34,703 nucleotides of DNA from a virus (Duplodnaviria > Caudoviricetes): positions 1 through 34,703 of IMG/VR virus record IMGVR_UViG_3300031519_000101, one strand, 5' to 3'. Every line of letters starts with the position of its first letter. The first letter of the stretch is position 1. The notes beneath the pieces were generated by a model that saw only the letters and a program-made list of their open reading frames with translations, had not been told where the DNA came from and did not search any database. A program made the position numbers and the translations under genes. This document shows positions 3 to 20,964 of the stretch, one piece after another.

Positions 3-3000
3 ACTAGAAAGCAAATAACTAAAATATCAGCATTAGATGGTTTAGTTACTGGCGGCACAATGAATTTAACAGATGCATTAACTGAAATAGGTTTAGATAC
101 AAATGGTGCTGGGTCTGTAGTTTTAAGCGCAACGCTAAGCACTATGGCAGATGGTTTAGTATCTGGTGCATTTGGCTATGGTTTAGGTACTGCATTTGCT
201 AGGCCAAAAGCTGGTGTTAATAGAGCTAAGATATGGAGTACGCAATATAAAGCATACTTAAATAGCGTTAATAATAAGCCAGTATTAAGTAAAAAACCAG
301 GAGATGAAGTTGAGCCTATTTCTTATGGAGGTAAATGGTTTAACGAATCTTGGTTTGGCAAAATGGTTCCAAGCCCAATAAAAGCAACAGTTGTAGATAA
401 AAATATACCACAGTTTTTTAAAGCAGAAATATTAGCTTTAGGTGGTTCTAATGGTTTGCCATTAGTTGCAAATCAAATGGGACAAAGCATGGGCAATTCT
501 GTTTATATTAATGCTGGTCGCAGACAAGGCGAATGGTATGCCGCTATGGATATTGTAAATCAAAACTATAGAAAAGTTAGCCCAAGAGGTAAGGCTGAAT
601 TGTTTAATATACCTGTTGGACAGTATGTAGAAACTGTAAGGGCTAAGTTGGGCAAGACAAGTTTTGCTCCGTCTGAATGGCAAGACCATATAGGTAAAAT
701 AATAATGGACGATGTGCCGTATGACCAAATGACACCAGAAGAAGCGGCATCAACTCAAGCTGTAAGGGCATACTTCGAAAAGTTTGGTGGAGAGTTAGAA
801 GAAATAGGATTAATAAAAAGTCGCGATGTTTTTGAAGATACATATTTAAAAGAAGTTGGTAAGGCATTTGAATTAACGAGCGTTACTAATAACATTATTG
901 ACGCAAACAAAAAATGGATGGCAAAAGCCCAAGCGAAAATACAAAAAAGATATGATAAAGATTTAAAATTACAAAAATCTTTAGAGCAGCAGCAAATAGC
1001 AAGAGGCTTAACTAATAAGCAAGTTGATTTAAAAAAGAAAGTTGATGATAATATTGCTTTTTTAAAAAAAGATTTAGCTAAATTTGAAGATAAATTTGAT
1101 AAAATTAATAATGCAAAAGACATTGATGAACTTGCTTCTTTATATAATGAGTTAGATCTTACAGATAAAATGCGTGATGCATTGCAAAGTCTAGGTAAAT
1201 CTTTTGATGATATAAGATTTAAAATTGATAATGCTTTAGAAGTAATTGAGCATCATGGCAAATTAACTAAAGCAAACAAATATGATTTGCCACGTATATT
1301 TAACAGACAAAAAATACACAAAGAACGTGATGGTTTTAGAAATTTATTAATAGCAGAATATAAAAAGAACCCAACTATAGTTAGTAGAGATGACAAAGGC
1401 TTATTCCAAATACAAAAATTAGCTACTGACCCTGCTTCTTTGTATCGCCGAGCAGAAGAAACTATACAGAATATAATGGAGGAAACTGACGAAGATGCTA
1501 TTGATGCTATATTTACTGGTTTTGGTCGGAGTGGTCCTCTTGTCTCTCGTCGATTAAATGTACCAAACTCAGCTATAAAAGAGTATTTAGTTACAGATGT
1601 TAAAGAATTAATGATTAATTATGGCGCAAGGGTAGCACCAAAACTAGAGTATCACAAAGCTAATCTTAATCCTGATACTGGTAAACTTATGACACTTGAA
1701 GAAAAATTATTTAGGATGCGTGCAGAACTAAACGCAGCAAAAGTACCGCGCAAAAGTATAGATAAATTTCTTAAAAACTATGTTCATACTTATGATAGAG
1801 TTGTTGGCACTACACTTAAAAGGGCAGATTCTATTGATACAAGAGTAGCTGATATGCTTAGAACAGCAACAAGTTGGACATTTCTTGGCGGATCTGGTGT
1901 AGCAGCTTTTGGTGATGCTGCATCAATATTTATGGATCACGAATTAAATGTAATAGGGCGTAGCTTCTTAGGTTTAATGGACGATATATCGCTTAAACAT
2001 TCTGCGCATGAGCTAAAGTTATCTGGTGAAGCATTGGAAATGACATTAGGTACAACGCATCTTAGGTATATGGAAAGTTTATCTAATGATTTATTTCAGA
2101 AAACATTACCTGACAAATTAAACAACGCATTTTTTGTAGCTAATGGGCTTGGGCCAGTTACAGTTGGTATAAAAATGTTAGATGGTTTAGTGCGCGGACA
2201 TACAATAATAGACTCATCAATAAAGCTTACTAAAGGTACTGCATCAGATTTTGAAAAAGAATTTTTAGCTAGATACAATATTACAGAAGAAATGGCAGAA
2301 CGTATAAGCGCAATGCCACATCAAAAATCAACAGGTGGTGAGTTAATATTACCTAATACTGAAGCGTGGACAGATGTAGACGCAGTAGCAGAGTTTAGAA
2401 ATGCACTTAGATCAGGCGTTATGAACAGAGTTATTATGGGTGGCCCAGAAGATAAACCTATTACTATGGATGGCGTTGCTTATATACCAGATCATGTAGC
2501 AAAGACATTGCCTTACTACGATAAAATGCCAAGAGACCCTAGGGTTAAAGGTTATGTAAGAGTTGAAAGTGGTTTTCTTGCATTGCCATTTACTTTCTAC
2601 AGTTTTGTAGTTGGCGCGTTAAACAAAATTACAGGTAATATGGCAGCTGGATCTGTTAGAAATAAAACTACGCATATAGCAGTAGCAATGATGCTTGGAT
2701 ATTCTGTAACAAAATTTAGAACGCCTGAGTGGGCATGGGATAAAATGGATACAGAAGATAAAATAATGAGATCGTTTGATATGTCTGGTATAGCAGCATT
2801 GCAAAGTGATTTATTATACAGAGCTATAACAATGGCGCATGAACTTGGAGCAGAAGATAAATTTCCAATACAACCTAAATATAGTGGTGGCTATGATCCT
2901 CTTGGCTCATTCGTTAGTTTAGGTGGTGCGCCCGCTGATTGGACGTTAGAAGTTATGCGCTCATTAAAGCAAATGGTTGAAGGTGATGTAGGTGAAGGTG

Positions 3001-3107
3001 CGAAAAGTCTAGTAAACATGATTCCGCTTATAGAAACAATGGCTACTGGTGATGCACTAAAGGATACAATGAAAGATATTGTAGGTGAATTACCTAACAG
3101 GCCATAA
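3..3107 (+). CDS. Large internal virion (ejection) protein, T7 gp16-like position; 5'-truncated, probably the continuation of the ORF starting at 34207
   Basis: Frame is open from base 3 (TRKQITKISALDGLVTGGTM...) to the stop at 3107. Over 1000 aa, helical-looking, and directly before the tail fibre in podovirus gene order. Confidence 0.7.
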   Translation, partial: TRKQITKISALDGLVTGGTMNLTDALTEIGLDTNGAGSVVLSATLSTMADGLVSGAFGYGLGTAFARPKAGVNRAKIWSTQYKAYLNSVNNKPVLSKKPGDEVEPISYGGKWFNESWFGKMVPSPIKATVVDKNIPQFFKAEILALGGSNGLPLVANQMGQSMGNSVYINAGRRQGEWYAAMDIVNQNYRKVSPRGKAELFNIPVGQYVETVRAKLGKTSFAPSEWQDHIGKIIMDDVPYDQMTPEEAASTQAVRAYFEKFGGELEEIGLIKSRDVFEDTYLKEVGKAFELTSVTNNIIDANKKWMAKAQAKIQKRYDKDLKLQKSLEQQQIARGLTNKQVDLKKKVDDNIAFLKKDLAKFEDKFDKINNAKDIDELASLYNELDLTDKMRDALQSLGKSFDDIRFKIDNALEVIEHHGKLTKANKYDLPRIFNRQKIHKERDGFRNLLIAEYKKNPTIVSRDDKGLFQIQKLATDPASLYRRAEETIQNIMEETDEDAIDAIFTGFGRSGPLVSRRLNVPNSAIKEYLVTDVKELMINYGARVAPKLEYHKANLNPDTGKLMTLEEKLFRMRAELNAAKVPRKSIDKFLKNYVHTYDRVVGTTLKRADSIDTRVADMLRTATSWTFLGGSGVAAFGDAASIFMDHELNVIGRSFLGLMDDISLKHSAHELKLSGEALEMTLGTTHLRYMESLSNDLFQKTLPDKLNNAFFVANGLGPVTVGIKMLDGLVRGHTIIDSSIKLTKGTASDFEKEFLARYNITEEMAERISAMPHQKSTGGELILPNTEAWTDVDAVAEFRNALRSGVMNRVIMGGPEDKPITMDGVAYIPDHVAKTLPYYDKMPRDPRVKGYVRVESGFLALPFTFYSFVVGALNKITGNMAAGSVRNKTTHIAVAMMLGYSVTKFRTPEWAWDKMDTEDKIMRSFDMSGIAALQSDLLYRAITMAHELGAEDKFPIQPKYSGGYDPLGSFVSLGGAPADWTLEVMRSLKQMVEGDVGEGAKSLVNMIPLIETMATGDALKDTMKDIVGELPNRP

Positions 3108-3108
3108 A

Positions 3109-3132
3109 TTGTGCGTCATGTTTTGTGCGTTG
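3109..3132 (+). promoter_or_regulatory. Tandem putative late-promoter motif (TTGTGCGTCA, TTTTGTGCGTTG) upstream of the tail fibre
   Basis: The same 12-mer occurs at 20398 and 26866, and a variant at 23599. All lie upstream of structural modules. Confidence 0.6.
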
Positions 3133-3175
3133 CGCTTCTATGCAGTCAATGAAAAAAAGAATACAGAGGTGACAC

Positions 3176-6100
3176 ATGACAATAAACATAGCTAACAATA
3201 GCCCACGAATAAATTACACGGCAACTGCTGGGCAAACTGCATTTACAATACCATTTGAATTTTATGACAATACAGATGTAAAAGTTTACGTTCAAGGCGT
3301 TTTAAAAACTATTACTACTCATTATTCAATCTCTGGCGGTAATGGCTCTACAGGCTCTTTAACTATGGCAAGCGGTGTTACCTTAGATAATGAGGTTGTA
3401 ATAGTCAGAGACGTTCCTATGGAGCGCACAACAGATTTAACATCAAGCTATAGCGCATCTTCTTTAGACGCGCAGCTAGATCGCATTGTTGCACAAATTG
3501 CTGACCTTGATGATAAAGCATCACGAACAATACAGATAAATGATTATGAATTGGCAAGTGGTTTACTCCTCCCTGCACTTGACAATCGCAAAGGTAAGAC
3601 CATCCAATTTAACACCAGCACTGGTGCTTTAGAGGTTGGTCCTACTGGCGCGGATGTAACTGCACTTGGTTCTGTTACTTCTGAAATAGCTACATTAGCT
3701 GGCATTAGTGGCAATATTACAACAGTTGCTAACTCTAATGCACAGGTTGTTGCTGTTGGTAACTCTATGACAAGTGTAAATGCTATTAATGCAGCGTTAA
3801 CTAATGTAAATAACGTAGCTGGTGCAATTTCAAATGTTAATTTAGTTGGTGGTTCTATTGCTGACGTTAATGATGTGGCTGATTCTCTTGGAGAAATTAC
3901 AGCAGTGCAAGCAAAGCTTACAAACATTGATACTGTAGCTGTTGCATCAACAAATATAGGCACAGTAGCAGGATCTATAGCTCAAGTTAATACTGTAGCT
4001 TCTAAGATTGCTGATGTTACAGGTGTTAATTCTAATATAGCTGCAATAACTACGTCAAATTCTAACTCTACTAATATAAATACAGTAGCTAGCAACATAG
4101 ATGATGTTAATGATGTAGCTAATGTTATAACAAAAGTAACAAATGTTGCTGATAATATTGGTGATGTTACAACTGTAGCCCCAGCAGTCTCTAATGTTGG
4201 AACTGTAGCTAGTAATATAGGTAATCTTAATACTGTTGCTAGCAATATAAATAATATTAATATCGTTGCAGCCAATGGTGGCATTGGAGCTACAGGCCCA
4301 CAAGGGCCACAAGGTTTAACTGGCTCAACTGGACCAGCGGGTTCAACAGGGCCAACTGGACCAGCAGGACAGCAAGGCGCAACAGGTCAAACAGGTGCGC
4401 GTGGATTTGCAGGAGCAGATAGTACAGTAGCAGGACCAGCAGGACCAACAGGAGCAACTGGACCACAAGGTGCTGACAGTACAGTAGCAGGACCAGCAGG
4501 GCCAACAGGTCCACAAGGCGCAACTGGAGCAACAGGTCCGACAGGAGCCGATTCAACTGTAGCAGGACCAGCGGGAGCTACAGGTCCACAAGGTCCAGCA
4601 GGAGCAGACGGTGCAGATTCTACAGTAGCAGGGCCGACAGGAGCCACAGGGCCTCAAGGAATACAAGGAGAAACTGGTTCTACTGGAGCAACAGGCCCAG
4701 CGGGAGCTGACTCAACTGTAGCAGGTCCAACAGGAGCAACTGGTCCTACAGGACCGCAAGGTCCAGCAGGAAATGATGGAGCTGATTCAACTGTAGCAGG
4801 ACCGCAAGGTCCAGCAGGAACGAATGGAACAGATGGAACAGATGGAACAGATGGTGCATCTTACACTCACCCAAATCACTCAGGCGAAGTCACATCGACA
4901 GCCGATGGTGCAACAGTCATAGCTGATAACGTAGTTGACGAAGCAAACCTAAAGGTAAGCAACACACCTACCGATGGCTACATGCTAACGGCACAGTCAG
5001 GTAATACAGGTGGTTTGACTTGGGCGGCGGCGGCTTCTGGTGGAGGTGGTGGTGCAGACCTCTATGCGGCTAACGAAAGTTCTCCTTCAGCCCAACCTTC
5101 TGCTACAGGTACAAACTCCATTGCAATAGGTGACAGTGCTATCAGTAGCAATACAGAAAGTTTTGCTTTTGGTAAAAGCCGTGCTTCTGGGATAGAAAGC
5201 CTTGCAATGGCTATAGATAGTAACTCTACTTCTTTTGGTGCATCAGGTACTAACAGTGTTGCAATCGGTAAAACTGCCAAAGCTACAGGGAGTTATTCTT
5301 TTGCCGCTGGCGGTACTCGTCCTGCGGCTACATCCCAAAGTGCTATAGCCATTGGAAGTTATGCAAAAGCTACTGGTCTTAGCTCACTGGCTTTGTCTAC
5401 TGAGGGAAGTGGATATTATACGACTGCATCTGGTTCACAATCCGTAGCTATAGGAAATAGACTAGTATCATCAGGGAATGAATCTTTTGTAATAGGTACG
5501 TTAAGTACAGTTTCTCATAATTACTCAATTGCATTGGGTAAGGATATTACTTCTACAGCCACAAACCAAATTAACATAGGTGGTTCAGCACAAGACGTTA
5601 GAATTAGTGAAGTATACACCCTACCAAAAGTAGATGGTACTAACGGACAAGTCTTAACCACTAATGGCTCTGGAGTTGTTGCTTTCGCAGATGCTGGTGG
5701 CGGTGGCGGTGCAGACTTATATGCGGCAAATGAAAGCAGTCCATCAGCTCAACCTTCTGCTACAGGTACTAATGCCATAGGTATCGGTGATAGTGCAGTA
5801 AGTGCAGGAACAGACAGTTTTTCAGGACCTAAATCAAGGGCATCTGGAACAAACAGCTTTGCGGCGGCTATAGCTACTAACAGTACATCCTACGGTGCTA
5901 CTGGTTCTAACTGTATTGCTATTGGTAATTTAAATAAGTCTACTGGGAACAGTAGTTCTTCTTTTGGTGGATACAACAACATATCGTCAGGCAACTCAAG
6001 TTTTGCAACAGGATACGAATGTCAAGCAACTGTTGATTTTTCTATTGCTATAGGTAATAATGCCAAGTCAGATATATACGGAAAATTTGCACATGCGTCA

Positions 6101-15751: not shown

Positions 15752-16423
15752 TTACTCCTTATCTATGGCTAATTTTTTTTGTGACATGTCATTGATGATG
15801 TCGTCTAAAAAATCTGTGTTGGTTCTGTTGCTTGGCGCAACGTCCTCGATGTCATCCTCCCATCGCTCGCCGTTGAGCCATGTCGTAGGGTGAGGGATGA
15901 ACTGTTTGTCTGTGCCTTGAGTGGCATCAGCAAATTTTTTAACGGCAGTAAGAATTGCAATAGGATCTGCAATCTTACATGCCTTATCAAATGCCTTGCG
16001 AGCATGACCCTTTGCTATCTTGCGAGGGTATGCTGACCAGAAGGCATCGAAGGGGAGTGTCTGTGTGACACCCCAAGTAGTATTACTATTACTATTAATA
16101 TCTATTACATTAGATATAACTTGGGGTGTCTGTGTGACACGGGTATCTTTCATATCATCCTCCATTAAATGTTTGAATCTATACACACTGGCTACACCAG
16201 TACGTCCAGATCTTCTTGTTAAGTAATCGTTATCTATGCACCAGTTGATAGCACGTATGACTGTGCTTCTACTCAAGCCAGTTGTCTTGACTAAAGTTGG
16301 TATGCTTGGGAAGCACTCGCCATTTAAATCTGTATATCTAGCTAGCACAATCAAAATATATTTTGCATTAGGATTGTTTACTTGCCAATCAATTACATCT
16401 CGTAGTAATATGTCCGCGTACAT
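15752..16423 (-). CDS. Replication initiator (N-terminal winged HTH; lambda O/DnaD-like organiser)
   Basis: AKYILIVLA...GECFPSI.TL...TGLSRSTV.RAI; FDAFWSAYPRK.AK..A.KAF; FIPHPTTWLNGERWED; internal repeats. Confidence 0.85.
   Translation of the reverse strand: MYADILLRDVIDWQVNNPNAKYILIVLARYTDLNGECFPSIPTLVKTTGLSRSTVIRAINWCIDNDYLTRRSGRTGVASVYRFKHLMEDDMKDTRVTQTPQVISNVIDINSNSNTTWGVTQTLPFDAFWSAYPRKIAKGHARKAFDKACKIADPIAILTAVKKFADATQGTDKQFIPHPTTWLNGERWEDDIEDVAPSNRTNTDFLDDIINDMSQKKLAIDKE
16057..16140. repeat. Putative replication origin: two GTGTCTGTGTGACAC iterons flanking an AT-rich core
   Basis: Identical 15-mers at 16057-16071 and 16126-16140; 12-bp inverted repeat at 16067-16078/16119-16130; located inside the initiator gene. 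Confidence 0.7.
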
Positions 16424-18995: not shown

Positions 18996-19024
18996 ATGTT
19001 AGCACTAGCATACGCGCAGTGCAA
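18996..19024 (-). promoter_or_regulatory. Sigma70-like leftward early promoter
   Basis: Minus strand TTGCAC-17 nt-TAACAT with a TG extension; intergenic. Confidence 0.6.
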
Positions 19025-19066: not shown

Positions 19067-19101
19067 AGGCAAGGCCAAGGGTTATACCCATGACCATGCC
19101 T
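19067..19101 (-). terminator. Probable intrinsic terminator after the 19118-19585 gene
   Basis: AGGCATGGTCATGGG-TATAA-CCCTTGGCCTTGCCT followed by TATTTATT. Confidence 0.55.
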
Positions 19102-19117
19102 AAGATTATATCTTTTA

Positions 19118-19585
19118 TCAAAGCGTAATACCTAGCGAGGCTAGATCTTGCGCTGTCTCTGAGTCTATCTCTGTCGGTGCGCCATCTGGTGCAACGTTAG
19201 AGTTAGTAACAGTTGTATATACCTCCTCGTTCTCTGCTTGATACGCAAGTTGCGCATCATCTAGCTGACCTTGAAGAAACTCTACGTTGTATTGGTCAGC
19301 CTTGGCTTGAGCCAATGATGCTTGGTAGTTATTCTCTGAGATCTCGTCACCATTGCGGCGTCTTGCCCAATGTGATACCCAACCTTTTTGCTGGTCGAGC
19401 CTACGTTCTTGTCTTGGTATCCAATATTCCAAGAAGCGTATCTCTTGTTGCAGCTTCATCTTACGCAAAAAGGTCATGCTATCTGCGTTGTACCAACCAT
19501 CCTTGTCGGATAGCGTTGGTCTGTTGTTGAATAGTTCTGTGTTATTCACATATGTTTCTGTCATTGTTGTGATTAGATTTGTCAT
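19118..19585 (-). CDS. Hypothetical early coiled-coil protein
   Basis: GAGGA RBS in an AT-rich leader; 155 aa; flanked by hairpins. Confidence 0.75.
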   Translation of the reverse strand: MTNLITTMTETYVNNTELFNNRPTLSDKDGWYNADSMTFLRKMKLQQEIRFLEYWIPRQERRLDQQKGWVSHWARRRNGDEISENNYQASLAQAKADQYNVEFLQGQLDDAQLAYQAENEEVYTTVTNSNVAPDGAPTEIDSETAQDLASLGITL

Positions 19586-19625
19586 TGTATATATCCTCTA
19601 TATATTATTGTTTATTATATGTCTG

Positions 19626-19703
19626 GCCAGCACCGAAGACTAATGATAGTCAAGGGCGCTAGCCAAAGGGAACCCTTGACTATTAGTAGTCATCGGGGCA
19701 GGC
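19626..19703. repeat. Long imperfect inverted repeat (hairpin/cruciform)
   Basis: GACTAATGATAGTCAAGGG (19638-19656) versus CCCTTGACTATTAGTAGTC (19673-19691), 17/19 Watson-Crick pairs, extending outward. Confidence 0.8.
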
Positions 19704-19718
19704 GTACTTCTTATATCT

Positions 19719-19892
19719 TTATATTATTTCTATCTCTTGTTCTTTTATTACGAAGAAATGATCTAGCTCGTTCTGATTCTCAAGAGATTCGGCTATAGTA
19801 TGAGCTATTGTGTATGATTTATATCTACCTATTTCTTCTAACTCTATCTCTGCTATGCCATCTGTGTATGGTAATCTATTTACTGTATACAT
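19719..19892 (-). CDS. Hypothetical small acidic early protein
   Basis: GAGGA RBS before the ATG at 19892 (MYTVNRLP...). Confidence 0.55.
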   Translation of the reverse strand: MYTVNRLPYTDGIAEIELEEIGRYKSYTIAHTIAESLENQNELDHFFVIKEQEIEII

Positions 19893-19944
19893 TGTCTTTC
19901 CTCTTATATTAATACTCACACAAGACCACCTTGTGGATATGCCA

Positions 19945-20387
19945 ATACATATGCACGGAAAATACTGTCAGTCATTGGGATTAAGCATAGCGACCATTTT
20001 TCTAAAGGAAAAATTGATAATCCCATTACCCCTCACGCGCAAATGAACACTTGTGAATGAGCATGTGGGGTTGACGGACTGTATTTTATGTTGCGAAGCG
20101 AGGCAGAATCCGCACGGGGGTTCATGTGTGTGTATGTTAATACATTCGCTCTCTGAATGGGGATGCTACTGAAACTCTGTTCTCGTTGATCGACATGGAA
20201 TGTAGCCAACTTGATGAAGTCAAGTTGCCATGTAATGTTGGTCACCGACGAACATAGTTTAAGCATCCTCATAGAAGAGAGTGAACGGCTAGTGTTCAGC
20301 GCAGAAGAAGAGATAAGCACCGCGATCAGGATAGAAGCCCGTAAGGGCAGAGACTTTAGGCTCTGTTCACGATAGCCTGTTAATCGC
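19945..20387 (+). ncRNA. Candidate large structured non-coding element (ncRNA or folded ssDNA), three domains
   Basis: More than ten nested helices found by eye. G-U pairs fall almost only on the + strand. Includes a GTAA tetraloop hairpin. No credible ORF. Confidence 0.55.
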
Positions 20388-20397
20388 CCAACAACTG

Positions 20398-20437
20398 TTT
20401 TGTGCGTTGACACAGGGTATAATAGACGTGCTAAACA
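20398..20437 (+). promoter_or_regulatory. Putative late promoter for the packaging operon (TTTTGTGCG-TTGACA)
   Basis: The repeated motif overlaps a perfect TTGACA upstream of terS. Confidence 0.6.
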
Positions 20438-20478
20438 TGGGGGGAGAGAGGGAGAGGGGGGCTACAGTTGGAGATATT

Positions 20479-20856
20479 ATGAACAACATAACACAAAGAA
20501 AGCTAACACGTAAGCAGACAGCATTGGTTGAAGCGTATGTAGCAAATGGTGGGAACCTTACGCAAGCCAGCCAAGAAGCTGGGTATGCGCAAGGCGACAG
20601 CGGAAGAGTAACTGCACAGAAGAGCATGAAGCTAGCCCATGTGCAACAGTATATGATGGAAGTGGTGGCAAAGGAGTTCAGCCGTCATGCTCCTGCGGCA
20701 GTGCACCAGTTGGCAGGGCTAGCGAAGAAGGCTAAGAGTGAGTACGTTCAGTTGGAAGCCAGCAAGGATTTACTAGACAGGGCAGGGTTTAAGCCGATAG
20801 ATAGATCTCAGGTGCAGTTGGCGGGGGACATCAAGGTGTCAATAGACTTGGGATAA
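20479..20856 (+). CDS. terS: Terminase small subunit
   Basis: LTRKQ..LVEAYVANGGN.TQA...AGY and SEYVQLEASKDLLDRAG; GGAG RBS; upstream of TerL. Confidence 0.85.
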   Translation: MNNITQRKLTRKQTALVEAYVANGGNLTQASQEAGYAQGDSGRVTAQKSMKLAHVQQYMMEVVAKEFSRHAPAAVHQLAGLAKKAKSEYVQLEASKDLLDRAGFKPIDRSQVQLAGDIKVSIDLG

Positions 20857-20964
20857 GGGGGTGGGGGGTCAAAACTCTCGGGCACTATGTTATGTTACCT
20901 CCCTCACTCACATGATTGTTAAAAAAAGCTTGAAAAAATATTGTTAATAAAAAGGGTTTTGTAA

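Follow-up and report, generated by a model that had tools for sequence, protein, structure and literature searches.

In the phage genome studied here, the + strand of the gap upstream of the terminase small-subunit gene terS folds into covarying rods. If this strand is single-stranded, the first rod would rebuild a sigma-70-type promoter for the first early genes, and the last unit would signal second-strand synthesis, by which the promoter would be turned off; we give this model-based reading a probability of about 0.6. The DNA has this fold, with a strand bias, a promoter-like geometry that the fold-back arm has and the duplex arm lacks, a terminal unit (domain 3) shared with the F plasmid and with microviruses, and exchange of the region as a cassette.

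The window, i.e., the whole stretch of DNA analyzed (34,703 nucleotides), is a whole virus record of 34.7 kb. By family annotation it contains T7-like head, tail, and internal virion genes together with terS and terL, and a lambda-type replication initiator, a YqaJ exonuclease, SSB, and RusA as replication and recombination genes; no polymerase, primase, relaxase, or transfer gene was annotated among 50 open reading frames (ORFs) scanned, and the longest ORFs of the window encode 1,015 to 1,120 amino acids (aa). The closest cultured relative is Pelagibacter phage EXVC031P Hodr (L116, OQ414635; 64% identity in terL and 44% in terS), on which our literature search found no publication. Relatives of terS in two uncultured metagenome-assembled genome bins, Rhodobacterales and Opitutae, give a hint at the host, binning not being proof. 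The element occupies a gap with a leftward early operon on one side and terS on the other. Its features and those around it are as follows.

18996 to 19024, − strand: ordinary duplex leftward promoter-like site, just outside the cassette, heading the rest of the early operon
19073 to 20396, no strand assigned: swappable early cassette of 1.3 kb; within the same samples, alternative alleles are joined at ~19102 and ~20395
19118 to 19585, − strand: second gene of the cassette, encoding a 155-aa protein of no known family for which a long helical hairpin is predicted
19626 to 19702, + strand: second, smaller fold-back before the second cassette gene, with TTGACT (19676-81) on the 3' arm; z −5.89
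19719 to 19892, − strand: first early gene, 57 aa, family not known; ATG at 19892, ribosome site at 19899-19903
19909 to 20142, + strand: domain 1, a long imperfect fold-back, left arm template and right arm non-template (from pairing and fold z)
19913-43/20102-36, + strand: outer helix of domain 1, pair probability 0.82 to 0.84
19919 to 19935, no strand assigned: small hairpin (6-bp stem, 5-nt loop), seen in the sequence and predicted to lie at the 5' end of the early mRNA
19938 to 19940, − strand: leftward transcript start predicted from promoter geometry, opposite position ~36 from the −35 box
20071 to 20076, + strand: predicted −35 box TTGACG, paired on the 3' arm (unpaired probability 0.18)
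20092 to 20100, + strand: TG (20092-93) and predicted −10 box GAAGCG (20095-20100), 18 nt from the −35 box
20096, + strand: A in a mismatch bubble (unpaired probability 0.94)
20145 to 20285, + strand: domain 2, a 141-nt rod with a conserved 3x3 GNA/GTA internal loop (from pair probabilities and relatives)
20315 to 20392, + strand: domain 3, a branched unit of two adjacent hairpins, a probable second-strand signal (from profile and covariation)
20407 to 20437, + strand: promoter-like site of the ordinary duplex kind (TTGACA, TG, TAAACA) ahead of terS, conserved across every slot class
20479 to 20856, + strand: terminase small subunit terS, by family annotation

Fold of the element and its strand

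As RNA, positions 19945-20387 fold at −153.6 kcal/mol (z −5.55 on the + strand and −3.65 on the − strand), and none of 100 shuffles was as good; as DNA, positions 19905-20400 reach z −7.59 and −5.68, respectively. The stretch thus folds beyond chance on both strands, more strongly on +. The sequence-only reading that had pointed to it had set the start of the element at 19945; the structured stretch stands, but it really starts at ~19909, because 19913-19943 pairs with 20102-20136. Once 19913-19943 is included, the outer helix it had drawn (19945-55/20125-35) has a pair probability of 0.00, an artefact of truncation, and so does the GAATCC/GGGTTC hairpin (0.00). The other helices held in the models: the inner domain 1 helix (0.86 as DNA and 0.84 as RNA in the extended region), the three helices within it (0.53 to 0.97), all five helices of domain 2 (0.79 to 0.99), and in domain 3 the outer helix (0.86 as DNA, 0.63 as RNA) and the GCCC/GGGC hairpin (0.86 as DNA, 0.14 as RNA). 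A 150-nt sliding fold scan of the whole genome with 8 shuffles per window flagged many windows and was too noisy for use.

Upstream DNA was compared after 283 terS loci had been confirmed and 80 kept, of which 73, plus the window, had enough upstream DNA. Broadly shared DNA before terS amounts to only ~85 nt. The window's version of the slot is carried by 12 relatives, and the remaining loci form several classes without a BLAST link to one another, even at 94 to 98% terS identity; 50 of 60 distinct upstream regions nevertheless fold at least 20 kcal/mol below the mean of their shuffles (5 per region). In a set of 10 close relatives, two-sided changes affect 30 of the 134 predicted pairs of domains 1 and 2, many of these changes coming from one divergent row, L081. 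No tRNA or tmRNA was found, as had been stated before, and Rfam gave no match over the element at E ≤ 1; Rfam was likewise negative over 11 related loci and over the F, plasmid, and microvirus domain 3 sites. BLAST of the element against cultured phages returned chance matches only, and ORFs overlapping it had no family match. DNA contigs over the element had no depth dip, doubling, or strand-switch joint, a weak result since contig depth is flat.

Selection on one folded strand, which had been proposed from an excess of G-U/G-T pairs on + (about 10 versus about 1), is supported by 8 such pairs on + and 2 on − in the DNA minimum-energy fold and by the relatives. In a strand-neutral alignment of the arms of 26 loci (30 hand-anchored loci minus three near-duplicates and one without a long-range partner), G·T pairs outnumbered A·C pairs by 311 to 112, the expected G·T share being 57%; per locus, G·T exceeded A·C in 22 and the reverse held in 1, with P values that overstate the effect because the loci are related. 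Hodr is an exception (G·T = A·C = 2), and both of its strands fold alike (z −11.6/−13.1). Loop types point to the same strand. In 37 representatives of 86 regions, GNA triloops, a DNA feature, occurred 20 times on + versus 7.8 ± 2.7 in 100 shuffles (maximum, 15), and C-GNA-G loops 7 times versus 1.2; GNRA loops were borderline only (9 versus 4.4 ± 2.1), UNCG loops were found 0 times, and no loop type was enriched on the − strand.

These counts bear on the nature of the folded molecule, which had earlier been taken as a large phage noncoding RNA. Such a + strand RNA might be a 6S-like decoy that binds sigma-70 RNA polymerase through rod and bubble, or an antisense RNA against the first gene. 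6S RNA is a rod with a bubble that mimics an open promoter, with the template on the 5' arm, and the element shares this geometry, including the central bubble; the G·U bias would fit a + strand RNA equally well, and the GNRA count stands at the top of the shuffle range (9 versus a maximum of 9). We nevertheless consider an RNA unlikely. The window and the 11 related loci have no 6S or other Rfam match (6S covariance model included), GNA triloops are enriched, giving the element DNA-type loops, and the predicted product, unlike 6S RNA, runs into a ribosome site and gene. The TTG/TG/A sequence retains a constant spacing to a ribosome site of the opposite strand, and the left boundary of the rod ranges from upstream of the start codon to 150 nt within the gene. 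Moreover, domain 3 has a covarying fold that is favored by DNA energies and common to known single-stranded DNA (the F leading region and Microviridae). In four RNA-labelled runs (5 to 10% of words, contigs only), one contig spans 19884-20457 and beyond with no discrete high-depth piece, from which DNA in the libraries and allele differences allow nothing to be drawn for or against an RNA. No published account of a phage-encoded 6S RNA was found in our literature search.

Domain 2 lies between the two units discussed below. Its 3x3 internal loop (20197-20199 and 20232-20234) is retained in divergent versions, including those of a second phage family (L082, L083), with covarying flanks, and is a possible protein site; the rod itself is possibly a spacer or roadblock.

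The predicted promoter of domain 1

In the modeled fold of the + strand, the paired TTGACG, the TG, and the unpaired −10 A stand opposite the template of the first leftward gene, and domain 1 is likely, on this in silico prediction, a fold-back promoter for that gene. A standard promoter scan of the window gave nothing above chance. When the 318 TTG sites of the window were ranked as fold-backs, 6 paired with an upstream partner at a probability above 0.7, and the top two were both hairpins of the cassette, the one at 19676 ranking first and domain 1 second. Domain 2 scored 0.77 in this ranking and was rejected as a third promoter because its TTG is lost in L034. The motif GCGAAGC at 20093-20099, which had been read as a very stable DNA mini-hairpin, is present; as a conserved mini-hairpin it does not hold, since the supported fold places it in the mismatch bubble of the predicted −10 box, and in L034 it is broken by an inserted base.

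Loci were compared by means of an anchor, the small hairpin near the first ribosome site; a hairpin like that at 19919-19935 occurs in most slot classes. The right-arm TTG peaks 39 nt before the partner of the anchor, and unpaired zones lie at −14 to −9 and −5 to −2, where the −10 box and the start would fall (28 of 30 anchored loci). Of 26 loci, 22 carried a TTG within range on the fold-back arm, compared with 4 that did so on the duplex arm, where a side hairpin frequently lengthens the spacing by 14 to 20 nt and moves the TTG to −53 to −59. Of 32 loci, 18 had the strict TTG/TG/A pattern on the fold-back arm and 0 had it on the duplex arm (background, 1.1%), and a loose promoter pattern was present on 24 of 32 fold-back arms, in counts to be read with the pattern having been devised on the same loci, the anchors having been hand-picked, and the 6 loci added to the 26 having come from a motif that contains the −35 box. 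Mean unpaired probabilities were 0.09 at −35 and 0.71 at A−11. The strict pattern missed 14 of 32 loci and the loose pattern 8 of 32, and the misses include most of the second phage family having domain 1 (L082, L084, L089, L094, and L095). The −10 box is degenerate and lacks T−12 and T−7.

The same TTG/TG/A grammar is seen in the terS promoter, and a leftward duplex promoter of the terS type was absent from 30 of 32 gaps. No side hairpin interrupts the left arm in the window, and a weak duplex-like site lies on that arm; an ordinary leftward promoter is therefore possible there. The domain 1 motif is present in 35 IMG/VR stretches, some of them from phages whose right-hand genes are unrelated. 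The rod enters the first gene by 100 to 150 nt in Hodr and in many of the classes, with a noncoding mirror copy on the right.

Arms of this kind might also be the relic of an inverted duplication of an ordinary promoter and leader, i.e., a back-to-back pair of duplex promoters whose likeness template switching maintains, the fold itself being functionless. The right arm can indeed be read as a weak duplex promoter pointing rightward, with a sense copy of the leader behind it, and Hodr is without the G·T bias. Against this stand the preponderance of G·T over A·C with compensatory changes, the conserved bubbles at the −10 and +1 positions, and the displacement of the duplex −35 by side hairpins, and we hold such a relic to be very improbable.

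Alternatively, supercoiled duplex could extrude the fold-back promoter as a cruciform without any strand becoming free. The precedent is phage N4, whose early promoters are hairpins of the folded template strand with a G·A-closed triloop, as given in the available part of PMC4496689, so that a folded template strand with such a triloop is an early promoter in another tailed double-stranded DNA (dsDNA) phage; the site between divergent operons and the good folding of both strands, equal in Hodr, would also suit extrusion. The N4 hairpins, however, are of 5 to 7 bp and are read by the phage's own virion polymerase, whereas the rods described here measure 80 to 450 nt and carry host-type −35/−10 boxes, with no match to such a polymerase family and no N4-type virion polymerase annotated. 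The arms are long and heavily mismatched with 110 to 320 nt between partners, which would make extrusion costly, and a second-strand signal such as domain 3 would not be needed. We therefore think extrusion has little chance of being the explanation and prefer a fold-back promoter on a single-stranded + strand.

Domain 3 in plasmids, microviruses, and tailed phages

Domain 3 is a putative, and in our view probable, second-strand signal. In an alignment of 40 sequences, 92.6% of cells are paired and 73 are compensatory, versus 25.9 after shuffling (0 of 500 shuffles), with 8 rows off by one column. A profile built from 33 tailed-phage rows, which had been drawn with a pattern written after the microvirus alignment was known, found F twice (E of 1e-12 and 5e-12), two Microviridae, and the window once; it had no match in Hodr or in the 30 kb of ColIb-P9 that holds the ssi promoters. 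F has exactly two copies in 25 kb, on the same strand as its rods, one behind the rod before ssb and the other behind the rod before the ygeA-position gene. These rods are Frpo2 and Frpo1, respectively, in the available part of PMC9849209, and the second F rod, compared by eye, matches ssiD in supplement 7 of PMC11541004, where one candidate promoter extends into the start of domain 3, unnamed there.

The copy of one relative matches the gene-coding strand of two Microviridae in un-annotated intergenic gaps, one of which separates the capsid and pilot genes. By sequence comparison, domain 3 would thus be folded on the strand that exists single-stranded, namely the gene-coding strand of microviruses and the Frpo strand of F. 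Plasmid matches comprised 772 records at E ≤ 1 and 530 at E ≤ 0.01, 385 of the latter conjugative, a share given with no base-rate control. All 6 plasmid matches inspected were on the template strand of neighboring genes, and 5 were in leading-region clusters; 4 lie upstream of ssb/DUF905/parB/psiB or RecX/ssb genes, 1 at the end of an ardR operon, and 1, a weak match, after repC. Of 74 relatives, 20 have domain 3 close to terS, in every case on the same strand as that gene, and ~190 IMG/VR stretches contain the domain 3 pattern. The flanks were short in 41 of 104 distinct copies; among the 63 that remained, 34 were in a divergent gap and 45 had a leftward gene on the left, and because 18 of 63 had none there, domain 3 is not a marker of Frpo alone. 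Outside divergent gaps (L151, L208, and other contexts with both neighboring genes on one strand), it lies, e.g., after a long replication-type ORF or before an integrase-like ORF. Sphingopyxis phage VSN-002 (L273) has three copies (2532-2625, 2988-3078, and 5543-5639), two of them on opposite strands ~360 nt apart, near a gene annotated as telomere resolvase.

Domain 3 belongs to no Rfam family, and a 14-letter string of it was not found in the literature. Eleven ssi signals of F, R6K, R100, and ColE2 were described in the 1990s, and domain 3 may be an older F ssi signal that already has a name. The phiX174 primosome assembly site and the G4 oric are complementary-strand origins of Microviridae, located in intergenic DNA of the capsid-pilot region, and plasmid ssi signals likewise serve single-strand initiation. 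Domain 3 resembles these origins in location, lying in intergenic DNA of two microviruses on the gene-coding strand.

The earlier proposal of a folded single-strand origin accordingly fits domain 3; it missed domain 1 as a fold-back promoter for the leftward gene. Its argument from the absence of a primase is weak, because the lambda-type initiator of the phage would use host primase, as such initiators do. In its pure form, the origin would prime only the lagging strand on a displaced strand, with RNA polymerase at domain 1 and primosome or primase at domain 3, in rolling-circle or recombination-dependent replication, and gene expression would be incidental. The microvirus sites, the YqaJ exonuclease, SSB, and RusA of the phage, and the additional priming by Frpo transcripts (in the part available of bioRxiv 10.64898/2026.01.09.698686) all speak for it. 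An origin alone would leave aside that the predicted start keeps a constant short distance from the 5' hairpin and ribosome site, that the second gene is headed by a second fold-back, and that in 30 of 32 loci no clear duplex promoter serves the genes of the cassette; we rate it as rather improbable.

A second region, 15900-16150, lies inside the replication initiator gene and consists of strongly folding repeats, the protein having repeated TRVTQT/GVTQT; these repeats are likely a lambda-type origin separate from the element.

The systems closest to the element are Frpo1/Frpo2 (ssp1a/b; ssiD) of F, ssi1-3 of ColIb-P9, and the class 2-3 single-stranded DNA promoters of pESBL, as described in the available parts of PMC9849209, PMC11541004, PMC12672017, and PMC13478746. 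As in these, a long stem-loop of the template strand lies directly upstream of the first-expressed genes, −35/−10 boxes are rebuilt in the fold (in the phages in silico, at the strict and loose frequencies given above and with a degenerate −10 box), several copies head successive genes, and DUF932 and ArdC occur as cargo in phage relatives. With F the layout is also shared, i.e., start codon, rod, small hairpins, and domain 3 at about 430 to 530 nt, domain 3 following each of the F copies at a comparable distance and folding in the same way in the models. The element differs in that it resides in a tailed dsDNA phage lacking a conjugative leading region and any annotated relaxase or transfer system, within a cassette swapped among co-occurring strains, and in that its rod is AT-richer and without sequence similarity to Frpo rods. 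The last point comes from local BLAST against three plasmid leading-region stretches, one of them Frpo homologous (F itself was compared with phage domain 3 only), in which only domain 3 matched, apart from one 20-nt opposite-strand match. From these sequence comparisons, the element would work like Frpo/ssi promoters while standing outside that group in rod homology and conjugative context.

The early cassette and the proposed mechanism

Positions 19073-20424 formed a single unitig in 3 of 4 DNA runs, with other alleles joining, as loose ends, at 19102 and 20395-20396; the two small genes and the folds therefore move as a cassette. In the second fold-back, the TTGAC on the 3' arm was kept in 5 of 7 loci. 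The site at 18996-19024 has counterparts of its type in L011 and L022 and a comparable one in Hodr. Contig ends of relatives cluster at −147 to 0 and +349 to +450 from terS (6 of 41 right-hand ends in the latter range), which allele branch points explain as well as genome ends would. The G000 record is classed as linear, and end repeats are absent. Two G-rich tracts (20440-20461 and 20853-20875) flank terS, with A-tracts after the second, as a possible pac/cos packaging signal.

DUF932 is among the early genes in 4 of 4 relatives tested, and the early genes of the pelagiphage Hodr include ArdC (2553-3437), described in the available part of PMC7213743 as a single-stranded-DNA-binding anti-restriction protein of plasmids; this early cargo resembles that of plasmid leading regions. 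The first-expressed slot holds two families of 130- to 160-aa proteins with predicted helical hairpins, the L002-type first gene (A2) and that of the window at 19118-19585 (A3). Profile comparison found no link between them (probability, 0.5%), and a structure model of the L002 type had no PDB match at E ≤ 0.001 and one uncharacterized phage match. Both are candidates for anti-defense or DNA-protecting proteins. In Hodr, a 450-nt rod (4501-4948) covers the start of the first early gene and the terS promoter, and a terminator-like hairpin and a canonical leftward promoter follow that gene. The second gene of L016, L019, and L028 is preceded, ~900 nt left of terS, by an mRNA-strand hairpin whose loop is GUAA, a GNRA type, whereas the + strand folds carry GNA triloops.

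In the mechanism we propose, host RNA polymerase would bind the paired TTGACG and the pre-opened −10 bubble and start near 19938-19940 on the left arm, yielding a leader of 46 to 48 nt with a 5' hairpin and ribosome site, followed by the 57-aa gene; the second fold-back would serve the 155-aa gene. Where the rod of a relative reaches 100 to 150 nt inside the first gene, its mirror arm would take the place of the non-template strand. The cassette genes could thereby be expressed at once when the + strand is single. With less support, domain 3 would prime or regulate conversion to duplex from the right, and domain 2 might space or delay it, a roadblock role of such a fold being reported for F ssp2 in the available part of bioRxiv 10.64898/2026.01.09.698686. 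Conversion would turn the fold-back promoters off, and the duplex promoters at 19024 and 20407 would take over. The single strand might arise by import of one strand at entry, by resection starting at a nearby genome end, or by strand displacement in replication; such import has a precedent in RcGTA, which requires ComEC/ComF according to the part available of PMC12378983.

A further-reaching version, which we regard as doubtful but worth stating, is that a widespread group of marine podoviruses including Hodr delivers or converts the front of its genome as a single strand, e.g., via host ComEC as does the Rhodobacter gene transfer agent, and follows a leading-region programme like that of plasmids; fold-back promoters would then fire anti-defense cassette genes, which would be silenced once the second strand is made at the signal that F and microviruses also have. 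No published account of single-strand promoters in tailed phages was found in a search that had the original ssi papers and most subscription papers outside its reach.

Domain 3 provides a compact, strongly covarying DNA motif behind both Frpo promoters of F, the swappable cassette marks candidate anti-defense genes, and Hodr with Pelagibacter offers a cultured phage-host pair for testing. Tailed phages are assumed to inject, and first to read, double-stranded DNA; a promoter that is complete only on the folded strand, together with a unit shared with F and microviruses, would point to an unrecognized single-stranded step early in the infection by abundant marine phages.
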